A stretch of 64,000 nt of DNA from Candidatus Eiseniibacteriota bacterium (GTDB lineage: Bacteria > Eisenbacteria > RBG-16-71-46 > CAIMUX01 > WJJG01): NCBI GenBank assembly GCA_030628905.1, contig DAOVQB010000001.1, positions 41,375-105,374 of the forward strand, in the 5' to 3' direction. The notes under the pieces are model-generated. The model had not been told where the DNA came from. It ran no database searches and saw only the letters and a program-made list of their open reading frames with translations. The translations under genes were made by a program, and so were the position numbers. Shown one piece after another: positions 3,037-25,649 of this stretch (within the stretch, counting starts at the first letter, position 1; the number at the start of each line of letters is the position of its first letter).

Positions 3037-4296
3037 TGGTGTGACTTTGAGTGCATCGCGGTACACCTGCTCTACCTCCCCGGCAATGTGCTCCCAGGCA
3101 TAGCGGCGAACATAGGCCTGTCCATTTCTCCCCATGCGTCTCCGGCGCGTGGCATTACCCAATAGAATCTCCAAACGATGCTTGAGTGCAGATGCGGAGC
3201 CGGGCTGGAAATAGACGGCGGCCTCTGCTCCCCTCATCGTCTCGCGGTAGCCGGGAATGTCGGAGGCCACGATCGGCAGCCCACTGGCCATGGCCTCCAG
3301 AAGGGAAATACCGAAGCTCTCGCCGTCAACGGATGGGGCGACGAAGATATCTGCTTCCTGGTAGTAGTGCGGCAGCTCCCGCCGGTCCACAGCTCCGAGG
3401 AAGGTCACAGGAAGGCGTCTGTCTGCCACGAACCTTTCCAGGCCCGCCCGCTCCGGGCCGTCGCCGACGATCGTGAGTCGGGGATCGGGGCGCCCCTGGC
3501 GGGCTGTCACCAACTGCTCTGCCCCACTGCGGCGAAGGCGATCAAAGGCATCGAGTAGCGTGCGGAGCCCCTTGCGGGGGTCCAGGCGGCCTGCATAGAG
3601 GAAGTGCGTCTGACCGGTTGACCGCGAGCCGCTTGATTCCCGGCGCGGCCGGAAGCGGGAGAGATCAATGCCATTTGGTATGACTTTATAGTGCCCAGGG
3701 AAATGCCGTGAGACGTAGTGTGCTGCCACTTGAGAGACGGCGAGCCTGCGCGCCAGTCGGCGAGCAAAGGGCCTGAGCCATGTGGCAAAACCCTGATAGC
3801 CCCAGTGCGGTTTCTCACCCCCCGTGTGAAAGGTCCCGATCTTGACTCCCGGAAGGCGATGGATGGCCCAGAGGGGCAGAAAGGGTTCCAAGGGCGATTG
3901 GACGTGCACGACATCTGGGGATTCCGGCAGCAGGCGTGATAGCTTCGACGACCATCTCCCGCCGAAGGTGATGCATGCCCGCCCGCCATTTGAGGGGACG
4001 CGGACCGTGCGACCCACCCGGAGGACCCGGACATTGGGAGGATCGGGCTCGGGCTGATGACCGTTGCCGAGCGGTGTACCGGTCAGGATGCAAACCCGGT
4101 GGCCACGGGCAGCCAGCGAGGCTGCCAGGTGCCAGACATGCTCTGTGATGCCGCCGTGGAAGGGCAGATATGACTGACTCACGAGACAGATGTGCAGGGC
4201 TCTGTTGGCCACCTCTCCTCCCGCTTGCGTTCGGTCAGAGACCCAATCAAGCCTACGAAGATCGCTTCCCAGCGACAACCTTCTTGTTGCACGCAC
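2959..4296 (-). CDS. Glycosyltransferase family 4 (GT-B, group 1). The start codon is uncertain; a GTG near 4212 is possible.
   Basis: The N-terminal domain reads 'HICLVSQSYLPFHGGITEHVWHLAASLAARGHRVCILTG' and the C-terminal motif is 'EGFGISLLEAMASGLPIVASDIPG' (the E-x7-E region of GT4 enzymes). Confidence 0.8.
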   Translation of the reverse strand: MRATRRLSLGSDLRRLDWVSDRTQAGGEVANRALHICLVSQSYLPFHGGITEHVWHLAASLAARGHRVCILTGTPLGNGHQPEPDPPNVRVLRVGRTVRVPSNGGRACITFGGRWSSKLSRLLPESPDVVHVQSPLEPFLPLWAIHRLPGVKIGTFHTGGEKPHWGYQGFATWLRPFARRLARRLAVSQVAAHYVSRHFPGHYKVIPNGIDLSRFRPRRESSGSRSTGQTHFLYAGRLDPRKGLRTLLDAFDRLRRSGAEQLVTARQGRPDPRLTIVGDGPERAGLERFVADRRLPVTFLGAVDRRELPHYYQEADIFVAPSVDGESFGISLLEAMASGLPIVASDIPGYRETMRGAEAAVYFQPGSASALKHRLEILLGNATRRRRMGRNGQAYVRRYAWEHIAGEVEQVYRDALKVTPSAVQGIDPREPAEGERFVHLLNDPG

Positions 4297-4842: not shown

Positions 4843-5427
4843 TTGCAGGGGAGGCAGATGGACAGGAGGAAGCCCGCGCCTCGAGCGATTCGAGAAGCTG
4901 CGGCGGAGCGGATTGCAGCCGTGGCCCTGGGTAGCAACCTCGGATCGCGCCAGCAGTACTTGAACTTGGCCCGCAGGTCCATCGCCGCCCGGTTGGGAGA
5001 TGTAGTCTGTAGCTCTAGCATTTACGAGACTCAGCCGGTTGGTCCGTCCGGGCAGGGGAAGTATCTGAACCAGGTCGTTGTAATCGACACACCGCGGGAG
5101 CCAGAGGAACTAGTCGAACTGGCCCTGGCCATCGAAAAGGAGCTGGGGCGAAAACGCGGCGTCCGTTGGGGGGGGCGCTGCATCGACTTGGATCTGCTCC
5201 TTCACGGTAGCCGCGTGCGTTCATCGGACGGCCTCACCTTGCCTCACGCAAGGATGCACCAGCGGGCGTTCGTACTCGTTCCCTTGGCGGAGGTACTGCC
5301 CGACTGGCGGCACCCGCTTCTCGATCAGACCGTCTGCCAGATGTGTGCCGCCTGTGGGGACGGCGGCGTCGAGCGCTGGGACTGCGGCAGGGTTCCGCAT
5401 GGGGCACTGACACGGACCGGGGCATGA
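4843..5427 (+). CDS. folK: 2-amino-4-hydroxy-6-hydroxymethyldihydropteridine pyrophosphokinase (HPPK)
   Basis: The translation 'AVALGSNLGSR...SSIYETQPVGP...QYLNQVVVIDT...GGRCIDLDLLL...' is the canonical HPPK motif set. Confidence 0.85.
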   Translation: MQGRQMDRRKPAPRAIREAAAERIAAVALGSNLGSRQQYLNLARRSIAARLGDVVCSSSIYETQPVGPSGQGKYLNQVVVIDTPREPEELVELALAIEKELGRKRGVRWGGRCIDLDLLLHGSRVRSSDGLTLPHARMHQRAFVLVPLAEVLPDWRHPLLDQTVCQMCAACGDGGVERWDCGRVPHGALTRTGA

Positions 5428-6107
5428 TGCCTGGAATGGAGGGTGAACTGGTCGTGAAGGGAGAGCAGAGCACACCGCTTTACTTCATCGCGATCGAGGG
5501 TGTTATCGGCGTTGGCAAAACCTCGCTAGCGAAACGCCTGGCCGATTACCTGGGCGGTTGCTTACTGCTGGAACAGGTTGAGGAGAACCCGTTCCTGCAG
5601 CATTTCTACCAGGATCGACGGGCCTATGCCTTCCAAACGCAGATCTTTTTCCTCCTGTGCCGTTACCGGCAGCAGAGGGAATTCCTGCAACGGGACCTCT
5701 TCCGAGGGCCTGTCGTAAGCGACTACATGTTTCAGAAGGATCGCGTCTTTGCCAACATCAATCTGAGTGATTCCGAGCTTGATATGTACAATCAGATCTT
5801 TACGCTCATGGAGCGCGATCAGCCAAGACCGGATCGCGTGATCTTTCTGAGGGCGACTGTGGATACGCTGCTCGATCGAATCAGTAAGCGTGACCGGGAG
5901 TATGAGAAGGAAATGGACCCTGAGTACCTCGAGACGCTGGCTGAAGCGTATACGTATTTTTTCGCTCACTATACTGGTGCGCCGGTCATGGTCGTGAATT
6001 CGAACGAACTCGATTTCAGACGTGATCTTTCTCTTGTGTCGGATTTGTGGAAGGCGGTTATTGAACACCGGGCGGGAACAGCCGTGTATAATCCGCCTTC
6101 GGATTGA
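5424..6107 (+). CDS. Deoxynucleoside kinase (dGK/dCK family)
   Basis: The P-loop 'IAIEGVIGVGKTSLAKRL', the ERS-like region and a lid region are present. The start ATG overlaps the folK stop (ATGA). Confidence 0.8.
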   Translation: MMPGMEGELVVKGEQSTPLYFIAIEGVIGVGKTSLAKRLADYLGGCLLLEQVEENPFLQHFYQDRRAYAFQTQIFFLLCRYRQQREFLQRDLFRGPVVSDYMFQKDRVFANINLSDSELDMYNQIFTLMERDQPRPDRVIFLRATVDTLLDRISKRDREYEKEMDPEYLETLAEAYTYFFAHYTGAPVMVVNSNELDFRRDLSLVSDLWKAVIEHRAGTAVYNPPSD

Positions 6108-6158
6108 CGCCGTGTTGTTTCTAAGATGCTCCCATGATGTCTAATATGTGGAGGGCAG

Positions 6159-6977
6159 ATGAAAGTGCCAGGTAGGATGACAGCGCGGCGGTTGATCCGG
6201 TGGAAGAAGAAGGCTCGCAAGATCTCCGTGTTGACTTGCTATGACTTCACGATGGCCCGGCTCCTTGATCGTGCGCGGGTGCCGGTCATCTTGGTCGGGG
6301 ACAGCCTGGGACAGGTCGTCCTCGGGTATGATTCGACCCTTCCGGTCACGTTGGACGAGATGATCCTGCACACGCGGGCCGTTGCGCGGGCGAAGCCATG
6401 GGGCATGATCGTAACGGATATGCCGTTTCTGACCTTTCAGGTGAGTGCTGAAAAGGCCCTGGAGGCGGCTGGCAGAATCGTGGCAGAGGGCAGATGCGAT
6501 GCCGTCAAGATCGAGGGCGGGGAACGATCAGTACCGGCGATACGGCGCATAGTTGAGGCAGGCATTCCCGTCATGGGACACCTGGGGCTCACCCCGCAAT
6601 CGATCTTGGCCTTGGGGGGTTACCGCGTGCAGGGACGGAAGAAGGCCGAGCGGGAGGTATTGAAGCGCGACGCCGAGAGGCTGCAGGATGGCGGGTGCTT
6701 TGCAATCGTCCTGGAAGCGATACCGGCAACGCTCGCGGGCGAGATCACGGCTATGTTAAAGATCCCGACAATTGGAATAGGAGCCGGACCGCTCTGTGAC
6801 GGGCAGGTTCTAGTGCTCCACGACATGTTGGGGTTGTTCACGGAATTCGAGCCGCGCTTTGTCCGGCGGTTTATGGAAGGAGCTGTTCTAGTAGAGAAAG
6901 CCTTGCGGGAATACGTAGAAGCGGTCGAAAAGGGTCGCTTTCCAGGACCGGAACACAGCTTCGAAATAGACGATTGA
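6159..6977 (+). CDS. panB: 3-methyl-2-oxobutanoate hydroxymethyltransferase (ketopantoate hydroxymethyltransferase)
   Basis: The translation 'ISVLTCYDFTMARLLD...ILVGDSLGQVVLGYDSTLPVTLDEMILHTRAV...VKIEGG' matches PanB. Confidence 0.9.
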   Translation: MKVPGRMTARRLIRWKKKARKISVLTCYDFTMARLLDRARVPVILVGDSLGQVVLGYDSTLPVTLDEMILHTRAVARAKPWGMIVTDMPFLTFQVSAEKALEAAGRIVAEGRCDAVKIEGGERSVPAIRRIVEAGIPVMGHLGLTPQSILALGGYRVQGRKKAEREVLKRDAERLQDGGCFAIVLEAIPATLAGEITAMLKIPTIGIGAGPLCDGQVLVLHDMLGLFTEFEPRFVRRFMEGAVLVEKALREYVEAVEKGRFPGPEHSFEIDD

Positions 6978-6988
6978 GGGGAAGCACT

Positions 6989-8338
6989 ATGGCGACGGAG
7001 AAGAAGCAACCTAGCAAGATGCGCAAGAAGCAGGCTGGCAAGAAGCAGGCTGGCAAGGAGCAGGCTGGCAAGAAGCAGGCTGGCAAGGAGCAGGCTGGCA
7101 AGAAGCAGGCCGGCAAGAAGCCAACCAAGGAGCGAACGAAGGAGCGAAGGAAGATGCCGACCAAGCAGGCTAATAAGAAAACCACCAAGCAGCCTATCAA
7201 GAAGCGCACGAAACAGGTTACCAAGAAGACCACCAAGAAACCTACCAAGAAGACTACCATGAAGCGCACCACGAAGGCTAAGACTACTGCCACGAGGCTT
7301 GTCAAAAGGGTGAAGACCGCTGTTCGCGGAGCCAAAAGGAAAACCAAGGTAGCTAGGAGAATCGTTGCGGACAAGGCTGGGGCGGGGGTGCAGAGTACCA
7401 CGCGAGGGAGCCCGTCTGCAGTCAAGGCGAGTATCGGCGCTGCGACGACAAAGCGGTTCCAATCGGCGGAATCGCAGCGACGGTTCTCACGCCAGATGTG
7501 TGAAGAGGGCAAAAAGATCGGCTTTGTTCCAACCATGGGCGCCTTTCACGATGGCCACATATCTCTCATGAGGAAAGCGCGCAGCCAGAACGACGTCGTG
7601 GTAGTGAGCATCTTCGTCAATCCGCTGCAGTTCGGCCCGGGGGAAGATTTCAATCGCTATCCAAGGGACCTCGCGCGCGACATGGATCAGGCTCGGGAGG
7701 TTGGGGTAGATGCCGTTTTCGTTCCGGATGTCTCCGAGATGTACCCTCAAGGATTCACAACAGAGGTCATGGTAGGCCCGATGGCCAAGCGGATGTGCGG
7801 CGCGGACAGACTGGGACACTTCAACGGTGTGTGCACAGTGATCATGAAGCTGCTCGGGATTGTGCAACCCGATCGCATGTACTTGGGCCAGAAGGATGCG
7901 CAACAGCTTGTGATCATCCAACGGATGATCGAGGATCTGAGTGTGAATACGAAGGTAGTAGCTGTTGCTACCGTGAGAGAGAAAGATGGCCTTGCAATGA
8001 GTTCGCGCAACGCTCTCCTGAGCTTGGAGGAACGAGCGCAGGCGCCGAGGCTCTACGAGGCGCTGCGGTTGGCCCAGCGCGAGATCCTCCTCGAAGAGGT
8101 GCGTGATCCACGGCAGCTCCAAGCGCGCATGCGCGACCACATTCTGCGGGATGAGGTCTTTAGGATCGATTACATAGCAATGGTGGATCCCGAGACACTC
8201 GTGGATCGCTCAGTTCTGACGGGACGCACCCTGATTGCGCTCGCGGCCCATTTGGGCCAGACCAGGCTGATCGACAATATCCTGATCAATGTTCCCGGAG
8301 GGCGGATGGCCGAGGGGATTGGGGCACTGGGGCGCTGA
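6989..8338 (+). CDS. panC: Pantoate--beta-alanine ligase fused to a ~150-aa lysine-rich, histone-H1-like N-terminal extension
   Basis: The C-terminal ~280 aa 'IGFVPTMGAFHDGHISLMRKA...VVVSIFVNPLQFGPGEDFNRYPRDL...MYLGQKDAQQ...' is PanC, with a HxGH-like 'HDGH' motif. The N-terminus is (QAGKK)n followed by TKK/KKT-rich low complexity. The ORF is continuous, and an SD-like 'gagggga' lies before the ATG at 6989. Confidence 0.85.
   Translation: MATEKKQPSKMRKKQAGKKQAGKEQAGKKQAGKEQAGKKQAGKKPTKERTKERRKMPTKQANKKTTKQPIKKRTKQVTKKTTKKPTKKTTMKRTTKAKTTATRLVKRVKTAVRGAKRKTKVARRIVADKAGAGVQSTTRGSPSAVKASIGAATTKRFQSAESQRRFSRQMCEEGKKIGFVPTMGAFHDGHISLMRKARSQNDVVVVSIFVNPLQFGPGEDFNRYPRDLARDMDQAREVGVDAVFVPDVSEMYPQGFTTEVMVGPMAKRMCGADRLGHFNGVCTVIMKLLGIVQPDRMYLGQKDAQQLVIIQRMIEDLSVNTKVVAVATVREKDGLAMSSRNALLSLEERAQAPRLYEALRLAQREILLEEVRDPRQLQARMRDHILRDEVFRIDYIAMVDPETLVDRSVLTGRTLIALAAHLGQTRLIDNILINVPGGRMAEGIGALGR
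7031..7120 (+). repeat. 15-bp tandem repeat (caggctggcaagRag) x6 inside panC, encoding (QAGKK/E)n
   Basis: Direct reading of the DNA. Confidence 0.9.
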
Positions 8339-8367
8339 GGTAGCCGCCCGAATAGAAGAGGCTTCAG

Positions 8368-9531
8368 ATGCAGGAGCGCGGGCTAGCAGTAGTGATCTTG
8401 GGAGCGGAGCACGGGGCAAAGAAAGTGGTCCCCCTGCAGCAGTTACAGCATCCAGTGAATAGGGAGACGGCTCTGCTGCGTATGCTACGCGTGGCGCGGG
8501 ATTTATCACCCGCGCGCATTCTGGTCGTCCTGAAGGATCGAGAGGATGAAACCCGGGAGGCATTGAAGGGGGAGCAATATGAGATCCTTCTTCAGCGAGA
8601 GCAGTGTGAGCTGGGGGACACCCTCCTCTGGGTTGAGGATGCGCTGCAGGGTTTCACGGGCGATCTGTTAGTTCTTAGCAGCAGTGTTTGCCTGCTTCGG
8701 CCTGAGACTCTCCAGGTGCTGATTGAGATGCATGTTGCTGAAGAGAACGCCGGAACGATCCTAACCACCAGGCTGGATGATCCCACCGGTTACGACCGCA
8801 TCGTGCGCGATGAGAAGGGGCGCGTGAACGCGGTCCGGGAGGAAGCGGATCTAAGGCCTGAAGAGGAGCGGATTACTGAAATCAGCTCAGGGGTTGTGGC
8901 TTTCCAGTGCCGGGCTCTGTTTGAAGCGATCCGCCAGATCGAGCCAGACGACAAGCGGCCGCTGCGGTCCCTCGCCGACGCGGTTGGGATGATGCGCTGC
9001 GGTGGCGGTGGGATCGGCACAGTCGCTCTGAGTGATCCCTGGAAGATCCTGACTGGGAACGTGCCCGACTTGCTACTAGGTGCCAACGGCGTTCATGCCA
9101 TGCGCCAGCATGATGAGGGCGCTGGGCCCGTGGGGTGTAGGAGGTGCCATGGTGCATTCGAGATCAGTGCAGAGACAGGCTTGCTTGTAACCGGTGAGCA
9201 TGCTTGTCTTGGTGTGGAGTCCCCAGAATTCAACAACGGACAGCTCGTGGTTTTCCCTCGGCGGCACATTACAAGCCTCCTCTCTCTGAGTGGCGACGAG
9301 ATTTTGGACGTGAGCCGATTGGTGATCTTGGGAGAGGAGACCTTGCGGAAGATCTATCGCTTCGATGCTCTGAATATTGGCTTCACTTCCGGGGATGGCG
9401 AACATCTGGCGATCCAGGTCATCCCGCGCTGGGTGGGAGACCTCAACTTCCTGCCGCTCGTATCCGGGCTGAAGATCGCACCTGAGTCCCCCGCGCGGGC
9501 TTGGGCGCGTTTCCGCGAGGTGATGTCATGA
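8368..9531 (+). CDS. Two-domain protein: a GlmU-like sugar-phosphate nucleotidyltransferase domain fused to a HIT/GalT/Apa2-like C-terminal domain
   Basis: The N-terminal half aligns to the GlmU/NTP_transferase pattern ('DPTGYDRIVRDEKGRVNAVREEADLRPEEERITEISSGVVAF'). The C-terminal half 'QLVVFPRRHITSLLSLSGDEILDV...NIGFTSGDGEHLAIQVIPRWVGDLNFLP' resembles the HIT-superfamily nucleotidyl-transfer core, but the HxHxQ motif reads 'HLAIQ', so it is degenerate. Confidence 0.55.
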   Translation: MQERGLAVVILGAEHGAKKVVPLQQLQHPVNRETALLRMLRVARDLSPARILVVLKDREDETREALKGEQYEILLQREQCELGDTLLWVEDALQGFTGDLLVLSSSVCLLRPETLQVLIEMHVAEENAGTILTTRLDDPTGYDRIVRDEKGRVNAVREEADLRPEEERITEISSGVVAFQCRALFEAIRQIEPDDKRPLRSLADAVGMMRCGGGGIGTVALSDPWKILTGNVPDLLLGANGVHAMRQHDEGAGPVGCRRCHGAFEISAETGLLVTGEHACLGVESPEFNNGQLVVFPRRHITSLLSLSGDEILDVSRLVILGEETLRKIYRFDALNIGFTSGDGEHLAIQVIPRWVGDLNFLPLVSGLKIAPESPARAWARFREVMS

Positions 9532-24842: not shown

Positions 24843-25649
24843 ATGAAAACAAGCATCCTTTTGGCTATGGCCTTCTCGTTGCTGTTGGCCTCAAACGCTT
24901 ATGCAGGTTGGATAATTGAATCTAATACTACAATGCAGGATGGAGAGAAGAGCAAGGAGGTTGTCTACATCCAGGACAACAAGATGAAGGTAGTCTCATG
25001 GGAAGGGCAAAGCATCGGGCAAATCATGATTTTCGATATTGAGAAGGGAACTATGTGCGTATGCATGCCTGAGCGAAAGGTCTACTTCTGTAGCACGCCA
25101 GATGAGCTCAAGAAGAGCTCAGAAGAGATGGCCAATAAAATGAAAGAGGCCATGATGGCCAAAATGCCTCCCGAGCAACGGGAGGCCTACAAAAAGATGA
25201 TGGAAATGGAAGCCGGGGAAAAAGAAGCCGCGCCTGAGAAAAAGGCTACTTATAAGGTAAAGAAAACCTCGGAGAAAGCCTACATAGCCGGCTTCTCGAC
25301 GGTAAAGCACCAGGTGTTTATGAACGGGGAACTGGACCAAGAGCTATGGCTCGCCTCCAAGGTGAAAGCTGTAGACGAGTTGGATATGGGCAAGATGATA
25401 AACATGATGAAGGGCATGTCGGATTCAGGAGAGCATGTGTCTTTTTCGTCCACCCAGGAGTGCCTGGAGCTTATGCGCCAGGGTTTTCCGATCAAGACGG
25501 TGCATTATGAAGAGGGTGAACAATCCCAGGTCGAGGAAGCCGTCCGGATTGAAAAAAAGAAGATCCCGGCCTCTGAGCTCAAGCCGCCGGAAGGCTACAA
25601 GGAACTGACCATGGAGGAAGTCTACGGCATGATGAGAGGCGGGCACTGA
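24843..25649 (+). CDS. Secreted or lipoprotein-like protein of low GC, DUF4412-like (Bacteroidota-type), Lys/Glu/Met-rich
   Basis: The signal peptide is 'MKTSILLAMAFSLLLASNAYA'. The mature start 'GWIIESNTTMQDGEK...' resembles DUF4412 lipoproteins. GC is about 45% against a genome background above 60%. Confidence 0.5.
   Translation: MKTSILLAMAFSLLLASNAYAGWIIESNTTMQDGEKSKEVVYIQDNKMKVVSWEGQSIGQIMIFDIEKGTMCVCMPERKVYFCSTPDELKKSSEEMANKMKEAMMAKMPPEQREAYKKMMEMEAGEKEAAPEKKATYKVKKTSEKAYIAGFSTVKHQVFMNGELDQELWLASKVKAVDELDMGKMINMMKGMSDSGEHVSFSSTQECLELMRQGFPIKTVHYEEGEQSQVEEAVRIEKKKIPASELKPPEGYKELTMEEVYGMMRGGH

Follow-up and report, generated by a model that had tools for sequence, protein, structure and literature searches.

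We describe here the panC gene, coding for pantoate--beta-alanine ligase (PanC), in a 64,000-nucleotide stretch of DNA from a Candidatus Eiseniibacteriota bacterium (contig DAOVQB010000001.1); the whole of this stretch is called the window. The gene is a single open reading frame (ORF) in which a complete PanC enzyme stands behind a lysine-rich tail of 153 residues, predicted to be largely disordered. The explanation that we favour is that this polycationic tail is translated, is ancestral in the clade of PanC proteins to which it belongs, has evolved by replication slippage and acts as an electrostatic tether. As a whole, this explanation is given a probability of about 0.6. The features that the argument needs first are the following.

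6159-6977, + strand: panB (ketopantoate hydroxymethyltransferase), 272 aa; matches Pfam PF02548 at 364.5 bits, stop TGA at 6975-6977
6976-6981, + strand: Shine-Dalgarno (SD) site GAGGGG, overlapping the panB stop TGA and lying 7 nt before the panC ATG at 6989
6989-8338, + strand: long form of panC, 449 codons and a stop; a single ORF from ATG 6989 to the stop at 8336-8338
6989-7450, + strand: polycationic N-terminal tail, aa 1-154 including the codon that replaces the ancestral Met1; from composition, AlphaFold2 (AF2) model and coding signature
7451-8335, + strand: PanC catalytic core, aa 155-449 (295 aa); from Pfam, TIGR00018, matches in PDB, AF2 model and invariant columns

The 449-aa product was found once, as an identical protein, in the public protein collection (P0001).

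Catalytic domain and lysine-rich tail

A first-pass annotation, made from the sequence alone, had described a continuous ORF joining a basic N-terminus to a complete PanC. This description holds, as the single ORF 6989-8338 matches both PF02569 and TIGR00018. The PF02569 match scores 341 bits (cutoff 20.7) over aa 158-431 and covers profile positions 4-267 of 268, while the TIGR00018 match scores 313.8 bits (cutoff 212.75) and covers positions 4-283 of 283. Solved PanC structures were matched in 21 PDB chains, with T. maritima 2ejc the best (1.2e-85); in that alignment query residue 158 falls on chain residue 5, so that query residue 154 corresponds to Met1 of the chain. The HxGH motif is present as H187-D-G-H190 (7547-7558) and the SSRN motif at 338-341. 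When 29 clade sequences were aligned, H187-D-G-H190, Q214, the Q305/Q306 region and S338-S-R-N341 all stood in invariant columns. The AF2 model, for which 29 clade sequences were the input, places a strand at 155-157, a helix at 160-172 and a second strand at 177-182, with pLDDT mostly 85-98 from aa 155 onwards. From sequence and model together, aa 155-449 are a complete pantoate--beta-alanine ligase with the two-domain fold from strand β1, and the ATP-dependent condensation of pantoate and beta-alanine is its predicted activity. The basic region had earlier been drawn as far as 7500; it is shorter than that, the tail ending at codon 154 (7448-7450) and the PanC fold beginning at Lys155 (7451).

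The composition of the tail is extreme. Residues 1-153 include 41 Lys (27%), 13 Arg and only 6 Asp+Glu, which gives a net charge of +48 and a pI of about 12. With 20 A, 6 P, 23 T and many Q among the 153 residues, the tail is basic, of low complexity and T/Q-rich rather than A/P-rich. Lysine amounts to 26.6% of the tail versus 2.1% of the residues in 14 long ORFs of the window, a 13-fold difference. In the AF2 model pLDDT is about 40 for aa 1-98 and 128-150, and the tail is predicted to be largely disordered apart from one helix.

7286-7369, + strand: lone basic amphipathic helix within the tail, aa 100-127, TATRLVKRVKTAVRGAKRKTKVARRIVA; AF2, pLDDT about 60-68

This 28-residue helix bears a hydrophobic stripe and appears to be lineage-specific. 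Judging from the model, it could be a membrane-, nucleic-acid- or self-association element.

The same annotation had called the extension histone-H1-like. The label goes no further than its composition and fails for family membership. With the tail alone as query, no Pfam family was obtained at E <= 1 and no NCBIfam family at permissive thresholds, and a search of 5.8 billion proteins gave 172 word-sharing candidates, none of them at E <= 1e-3. The Pfam winged-helix domain of linker histones H1/H5 did not match the tail at E <= 1, and the AF2 model has no globular domain in aa 1-154. The Hc2 model PF07382 likewise did not match the window's tail at E <= 1. Membership of the H1, Hc2, AlgP or any other defined family, or a fusion with a known H1-like gene, is rejected on these homolog, Pfam and NCBIfam nulls, and "H1-like" is a term for the apparent composition of the tail alone, not for homology.

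Lysine-rich segments were also screened in all six frames of the window, with at least 8 K in 30 aa required in open segments of at least 60 aa. One other segment passed, near 25188. It is YKKMMEMEAGEKEAAPEKKATYKVKKTSEK, a K/E-rich patch in a 268-aa ORF (24843-25649, + strand), and it is milder, with 9 K in 30 aa and 6 acidic residues compared with 13 K for the PanC tail. As this is the sole other segment to pass, lysine-rich tails as a general trait of the genome are rejected for the window.

Translation of the tail

The first-pass annotation had placed an SD site before the ATG of the basic region and had judged the fusion probably translated. The SD site is there, and we consider translation of the tail from this ATG very probable, because six independent lines agree: the position of the start, the absence of stops, the third-position GC content (GC3), the repeat periods, the substitutions between close tails and the loss of the ancestral Met.

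The position of the start is conserved among relatives. In all 15 loci that include panB, a long-form ATG lies in frame with panC and gives a tail of 13-239 codons. Its offset from the panB stop is -4 nt in 8 loci (an ATGA overlap), +8 nt in 3 loci, and -1, +2, +10 or +11 nt in the others, and whatever the length of the tail, a GGAGG/GAGGGG site stands 5-10 nt before this ATG (15/15 loci). Such an ATG at the panB stop is the classic layout of translationally coupled genes. In the window a TTG at 6974, in frame with panC, overlaps the panB stop (TTGA) 5 codons upstream of ATG 6989 and is a less likely alternative start.

The coding signature extends through the tail. There are no in-frame stops in 1171 tail codons versus 23 and 10 in the other two frames, and for the window's tail alone the counts are 0 versus 3 and 5. 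GC3 is 0.73-1.0 in the tails and 0.70-0.96 in the enzyme domains (0.73 and 0.70, respectively, in the window). The closest pair of tails for which DNA was available, those of L093 and L094, is separated by 4 synonymous substitutions, 1 non-synonymous substitution and one 3-nt indel.

The last line concerns two codons at the beginning of the enzyme.

7448-7450, + strand: ACA (Thr), codon 154, where the ancestral PanC had Met1; from the 2ejc alignment and the start position 27 codons before PTMG
7496-7498, + strand: internal ATG, Met170; no SD in the 18 nt upstream (CGACGGTTCTCACGCCAG), within helix α1 (160-172) and after the strand at 155-157

The ancestral Met1 is ATG in 36 of 40 orthologs, Thr in the window, P0003 and P0030, and Leu in P0014. 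Its replacement by Thr in the window's genome is a start feature that the first-pass annotation had missed. As the canonical Met is lost there, any complete enzyme would carry at least part of the tail. Similarly, in L087 (P0030) the ATG that overlaps the panB stop is the only in-frame start that yields the complete fold. The Met of "MCEEGKKIGFVPTMG", which had been put forward near 7496-7499 as an internal start of a canonical PanC, does exist at 7496-7498. As the true start it is rejected: it has no SD, and a protein begun at this codon would lack strand β1 and most of helix α1. The in-frame starts that lie 5' of the fold in the window are ATG 6989, 7019, 7154 and 7259, and GTG 7310 and 7388.

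Tandem repeats

The DNA of the tail contains two families of tandem repeats, located with Tandem Repeats Finder (TRF).

7031-7120, + strand: six 15-bp units coding QAGKK/QAGKE; TRF, repeat family D1
7115-7280, + strand: degenerate 12/24-bp tandem arrays coding TKE/TKQ/TKK motifs; TRF periods 12 and 24, 73-85% match, repeat family D2

The first of these had been described as a perfect 15-bp x6 repeat coding (QAGKK)6. Six pentamers are indeed present, and they are neither perfect nor uniform: TRF gives period 15, 6.6 copies, 94% match and a score of 177 over 7023-7121, and the units alternate in the order QAGKK-QAGKE-QAGKK-QAGKE-QAGKK-QAGKK, two of the six being QAGKE. A 30-bp unit is perfectly duplicated in the first 60 bp, while the last 30 bp show two base differences from this unit, one of them synonymous (GCT to GCC). 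This perfect duplication followed by a slightly diverged third unit points to recent in-frame slippage or duplication acting on the 30-bp QAGKK/E unit, in agreement with the recent slippage-driven expansion that had been suggested before. Across four lineages, the repeats that build the tails have periods of 15/30, 12/24, 24/48, 12/36 and 30 bp, all of which are multiples of 3.

Distribution among PanC relatives

Relatives were collected by a search of the protein collection, in which about 40 PanCs, 64-78% identical in the enzyme domain, form a tight clade. All named members belong to Candidatus Eisenbacteria. The length of the clade proteins is 296-549 aa, compared with 273-302 aa for almost all of the more distant matches; the exceptions are P0098, a PanC-NTP_transferase fusion, and P0103 (321 aa), in which the additional N-terminal residues do not form a basic low-complexity tail. 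A comparison of orthologs for the same extension had been proposed by the first-pass annotation, and every close ortholog was found to have a basic extension from the panB stop. More precisely, all 40 close orthologs have either an N-terminal extension or an in-frame basic ORF that reaches the contig edge or panB. Three proteins are called from the canonical Met, and in each the DNA continues upstream: in L119 (P0002) an in-frame basic ORF extends to the contig edge, in L083 (P0033) an ATGA-overlapping start gives a 34-aa tail (3568-3672), and in L123 (P0034) an SD-preceded ATG 8 nt after the panB stop gives a 48-aa tail (2357-2503). We are almost certain that the basic N-terminal tail is a clade-wide trait of these PanCs.

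The extensions are 12-238 aa long with a median of 32. None of the 38 that were measured has a net charge below 0, and the median net charge per residue is +0.17. They contain few hydrophobic residues and frequently open with M-x-x-K-K-K. The window's tail is the third longest of the 38 and has the highest charge. Even with its nearest relative, L119, which is 78% identical in the domain, it can be aligned only weakly and over the last ~30 residues, from about aa 122; this stretch includes the C-terminal end of the helix at aa 100-127. The tails of P0018 and P0024 contain KPARK/TPAKK-type repeats, and P0018 is the sole ortholog with a precomputed PF07382 match in its tail.

For a control outside the clade, species-representative genomes were scanned with the clade alignment; the PanCs listed were at most 52% identical and none came from the clade. 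Among the matches listed, a Lys-rich low-complexity N-terminal extension was found in 0 of 79 non-clade PanC loci from many phyla. In almost all of these 79 loci the first start lies 24-28 codons before PTMG, usually 27. The distant protein matches P0042-P0120 also have canonical N-termini, and the longer non-clade proteins, when inspected, had no such tail either. One non-clade PanC of 297 aa, P0067, carries a short lysine-rich tail at its C-terminus, KSKVRSKKVKPKVKIQKF. Basic PanC tails may have arisen more than once, at either end of the protein.

The adjacent PanB proteins end in C-terminal tails with net charges of -7 to +1. Past the conserved "..FPGPEHSF" these tails are variable, of low complexity and 6-81 aa long (L083:3380-3571, L085, L087, L092; window 6960-6977); the one in L087 has 81 aa, is A/G/P-rich and contains an internal repeat. 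They trend opposite in charge to the basic PanC tails that start at the same junction, and a charge complementarity between PanB and PanC tails is conceivable.

Proposed explanation and alternatives

The favoured explanation can be set out in steps. Translation of panC would begin at ATG 6989, with coupling to the end of panB, and would give a complete PanC behind a 153-aa, largely disordered tail. The basic tail would be ancestral in the PanC clade, and in-frame replication slippage would alter its length and sequence very rapidly; in the window's lineage the tail would have been lengthened by the 15/30-bp (QAGKK/E) and 12/24-bp (TKK) repeats. With the ancestral initiator Met mutated to Thr, an untailed complete enzyme would no longer be possible. 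The tail would take no part in catalysis; its role would be to tether the enzyme to polyanions (nucleic acids, ribosomes, polyphosphate or anionic membrane) through non-specific electrostatic attraction. This last role is proposed by analogy with the tails of Ku, AlgP, PhaF and DdbA, and that the tail binds polyanions, rather than being a neutral appendage, is a tentative proposal to which we give slightly less than even odds. Function and recent slippage had been presented earlier as alternatives. They are not mutually exclusive: the long, repeat-built version is specific to this lineage, and the basic tail itself is old and clade-wide.

Several observations weigh against this explanation. 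All clade members are known here from assemblies of uncultured organisms alone, and the copy number of the pentamer may be an assembly estimate. A strong clade-wide need for polyanion binding does not fit several clade tails of 12-13 aa, whose net charge is just 0 to +2, and the tail sequences are unalignable across the clade, so that any selection beyond composition is hypothetical. In the window, a start at ATG 7154, with AAGGAG 9 nt upstream, would leave 99 tail residues, and one at GTG 7388, with a G-run upstream, would leave 21; both could shorten the tail. The ancestral Met is retained in 36 of the 40 orthologs, usually after Gly and often after GAGGG/GAAGG. In addition, the NCBI starts of MFH1144656.1 (L083) and MBD3235563.1 (L123) are at the canonical Met.

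Among the alternatives, the one that survives best, though we regard it as unlikely, is that the tail is translated and has no function of its own. The start of panC would have moved up to the panB stop with the coupling preserved, any disordered, soluble and non-toxic peptide would be tolerated there, slippage in purine-rich DNA would resize it, and Lys, Ala, Pro and Thr would simply be what stays soluble. A spacer of this kind would account for the extreme range of lengths (12-238 aa), for tails that cannot be aligned even at 70-78% domain identity and for the many that are short and barely charged. The PanB C-terminus, also variable and of low complexity, with its own repeats in L087, makes the junction look expansion-prone, and no homolog was detected for the tail alone. 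What a neutral spacer does not account for is the charge. Against the GC bias, the window's tail has 13 times the lysine content of a proteome poor in this residue; none of the 38 tails has a negative net charge; and the PanB tails at the same junction are neutral or acidic. Because of these three observations the basic character appears to be selected, not simply mutational. The recurring M-x-x-K-K-K opening, the mainly synonymous differences between close tails and the retention of the tail in every sampled clade member also speak against neutrality.

It is also possible that the tail does more than tether, as a functional module that places or regulates pantothenate synthesis, but we consider this improbable. 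Three forms of it can be named. The tail may hold PanC on the nucleoid, ribosomes or polyphosphate granules, or drive the formation of condensates. Tailed and untailed isoforms may be made in most clade members, from the panB-coupled ATG and the retained ancestral Met, with the window's genome locked into the tailed form. Finally, the tail lysines may read acyl-CoA or acetyl-phosphate and, as an acylation sensor, feed back on the synthesis of the CoA precursor. As for the isoforms, the sequences indicate that a tail-less second product could still be made in most relatives, while the purine run before the canonical Met is poorly spaced, with only 1-3 nt between it and the ATG. The conservation of this Met is not accepted as proof of dual initiation, because its neighbours K155 and R156 are invariant and the Met does not exceed them in conservation.

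A mis-called start is a still weaker alternative, and we think it very improbable. The real panC would begin at GTG 7388, ATG 7154 or ATG 7496 (in relatives, at the canonical Met), and the lysine-rich stretch would be an untranslated spacer or a minor product. The canonical Met of 36/40 orthologs, often following GAGGG or GAAGG, the NCBI annotation of P0033 and P0034 from that Met, and the SD-like AAGGAG and G-runs before ATG 7154 and GTG 7388 can be read in this way; moreover, AAG-rich low-complexity DNA is poor in stops, and both of two reverse frames are open in the window. On the other hand, the upstream in-frame ATG at the panB stop has a well-spaced SD in 15/15 loci, frame 0 has no stop in 1171 codons versus 23 and 10 and a coding-like high GC3, and the repeat periods are all multiples of 3. 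The canonical Met, whose purines are spaced only 1-3 nt from the ATG, is gone in the window, P0003 and P0030; Met170 has no SD and truncates β1/α1. Furthermore, an Rfam scan of 6000-8600 at E <= 1 gave no family, and promoter and terminator scans of the same interval gave no promoter-like site and no terminator above background. By these scans, the DNA that codes for the tail shows no sign of an internal promoter or an RNA element. The reverse-strand ORFs 6620-7462 and 6871-7536 were considered as genes and rejected, their sole match being Keratin_B2_2 at E = 0.028, below the cutoff; they are open across the tail region because the AAG-rich DNA holds no stops on the reverse strand.

An artefact or a fusion, in which a separate small H1-like gene was joined by an assembly or sequencing error or a recent stop loss, or in which the repeat array is itself artefactual, is hardly credible: short-read assemblies can mis-size tandem repeats and the window's own protein is on one contig only in the collection, but about 40 orthologs from independent assemblies (NCBI, JGI, ENA, Logan) have a continuous ORF and no separate upstream gene, a search with the tail alone gave no free-standing protein at E <= 1e-3, no relative was found with a stop codon between tail and domain, and the array of 90-100 bp is shorter than typical reads, so that its copy number is perhaps slightly off and the array itself is not in doubt.

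Implications

If the tail is functional, a housekeeping enzyme of vitamin biosynthesis would carry a histone-tail-like polycation across a whole candidate phylum, which would suggest that bacteria organise the synthesis of CoA precursors in space or regulate it by charge. Either way, the junction of two translationally coupled genes can create a disordered extension and rapidly reshape it by in-frame slippage. There are also practical consequences. Public annotation of these panC starts is inconsistent, as some records take the canonical Met and others the upstream ATG, and in expression or modelling of Eisenbacteria PanC, residues 1-154 are best handled as a separate disordered module.

Neighbouring genes

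The gene order folK-dNK-panB-panC-NTP_transferase/HIT-LytR_C-tatA is common to the window and the clade loci, and panB is immediately 5' of panC in all clade loci. This gene order and the similarity of PanC both assign the window to the Candidatus Eisenbacteria group. The gene after panC in the window (8368-9531, + strand) codes for about 380-390 aa; the N-terminal part of its product resembles NTP_transferase/IspD and the C-terminal part HIT/CwfJ_C. An NTP_transferase/HIT gene lies 3' of panC in the window and most clade loci, while in L081 and L122 the gene at that position has no NTP_transferase match on record. In another lineage, P0098 (565 aa) is a PanC fused to an NTP_transferase domain, in the same order as this gene pair. 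A functional link between PanC and the NTP_transferase/HIT gene, of unspecified nature, is suggested.

Further upstream, the longest ORFs of folK (HPPK; 4843-5427, + strand) and of the deoxynucleoside-kinase-like gene dNK (5343-6107, + strand) overlap by 85 nt. The dNK Pfam match starts only at aa 49 of its ORF, and therefore the true start is probably downstream of GTG 5343.

Comparison with known systems

The window's PanC was compared with canonical PanC proteins (PF02569, TIGR00018; T. maritima 2ejc, E. coli 1iho and M. tuberculosis 1mop). It shares with them the 295-aa core, the HxGH and SSRN motifs, the predicted two-domain fold and the panB-panC operon. Canonical proteins have about 273-302 aa and start 24-28 codons before PTMG, whereas the one in the window has 153 additional N-terminal residues and has lost the ancestral Met. 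PanC with an appended region is known from the cyanobacterial bifunctional PanC/(d)CMP kinase (PRK13477). There, however, the extra part is a folded C-terminal kinase domain, while in the window it is N-terminal and predicted to be disordered. Against the PRK13477 profile the window's protein scores 321.6 bits, below the cutoff of 524, and covers positions 4-282 of 514, which is the PanC half only.

For the tail itself, the chlamydial Hc2 protein (hctB; PF07382) is a close parallel in how the sequence is built. It is described as Lys-rich and coded by tandem pentamer-coding repeats, the variable number of which changes the size of the protein (PMC2848022). The window's tail is likewise Lys-rich low-complexity sequence from tandem pentamer-coding repeats; but Hc2 is a free-standing DNA-condensing protein, and here the repeats form an appendage on an enzyme.

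Basic low-complexity tails on folded domains, as in the window's PanC, are described for several other bacterial proteins. In M. smegmatis Ku, a lysine-rich C-terminal tail of PAKKA repeats modulates DNA binding (PMC3553676); the H1-like AlgP acts on the spacing of polyphosphate granules (PMC9239181); PhaF has an intrinsically disordered RNA-binding region (PMC12818456); and in Streptomyces DdbA an N-terminal H1-like region is fused to a DksA-like domain (PMC3643593). Two differences should be kept in mind. According to their abstracts, the partner domains of Ku, DdbA and PhaF act on nucleic acids, whereas PanC synthesises a small molecule and is not known to act on nucleic acids. Also, tails of the PAKKA/KPAA type are K/A/P-rich, while the window's tail is K/T/Q/G-rich. 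Full-text literature searches turned up no earlier description of a tail of this kind on PanC, nor any connection between Eisenbacteria and lysine-rich extensions. Judged by the published descriptions, lysine-rich tails on bacterial proteins and repeat-driven variation of size, as in Hc2 (PMC2848022), are known, and what is new is the unexpected carrier protein, the clade-wide occurrence of the tail and its clean origin at a gene junction.

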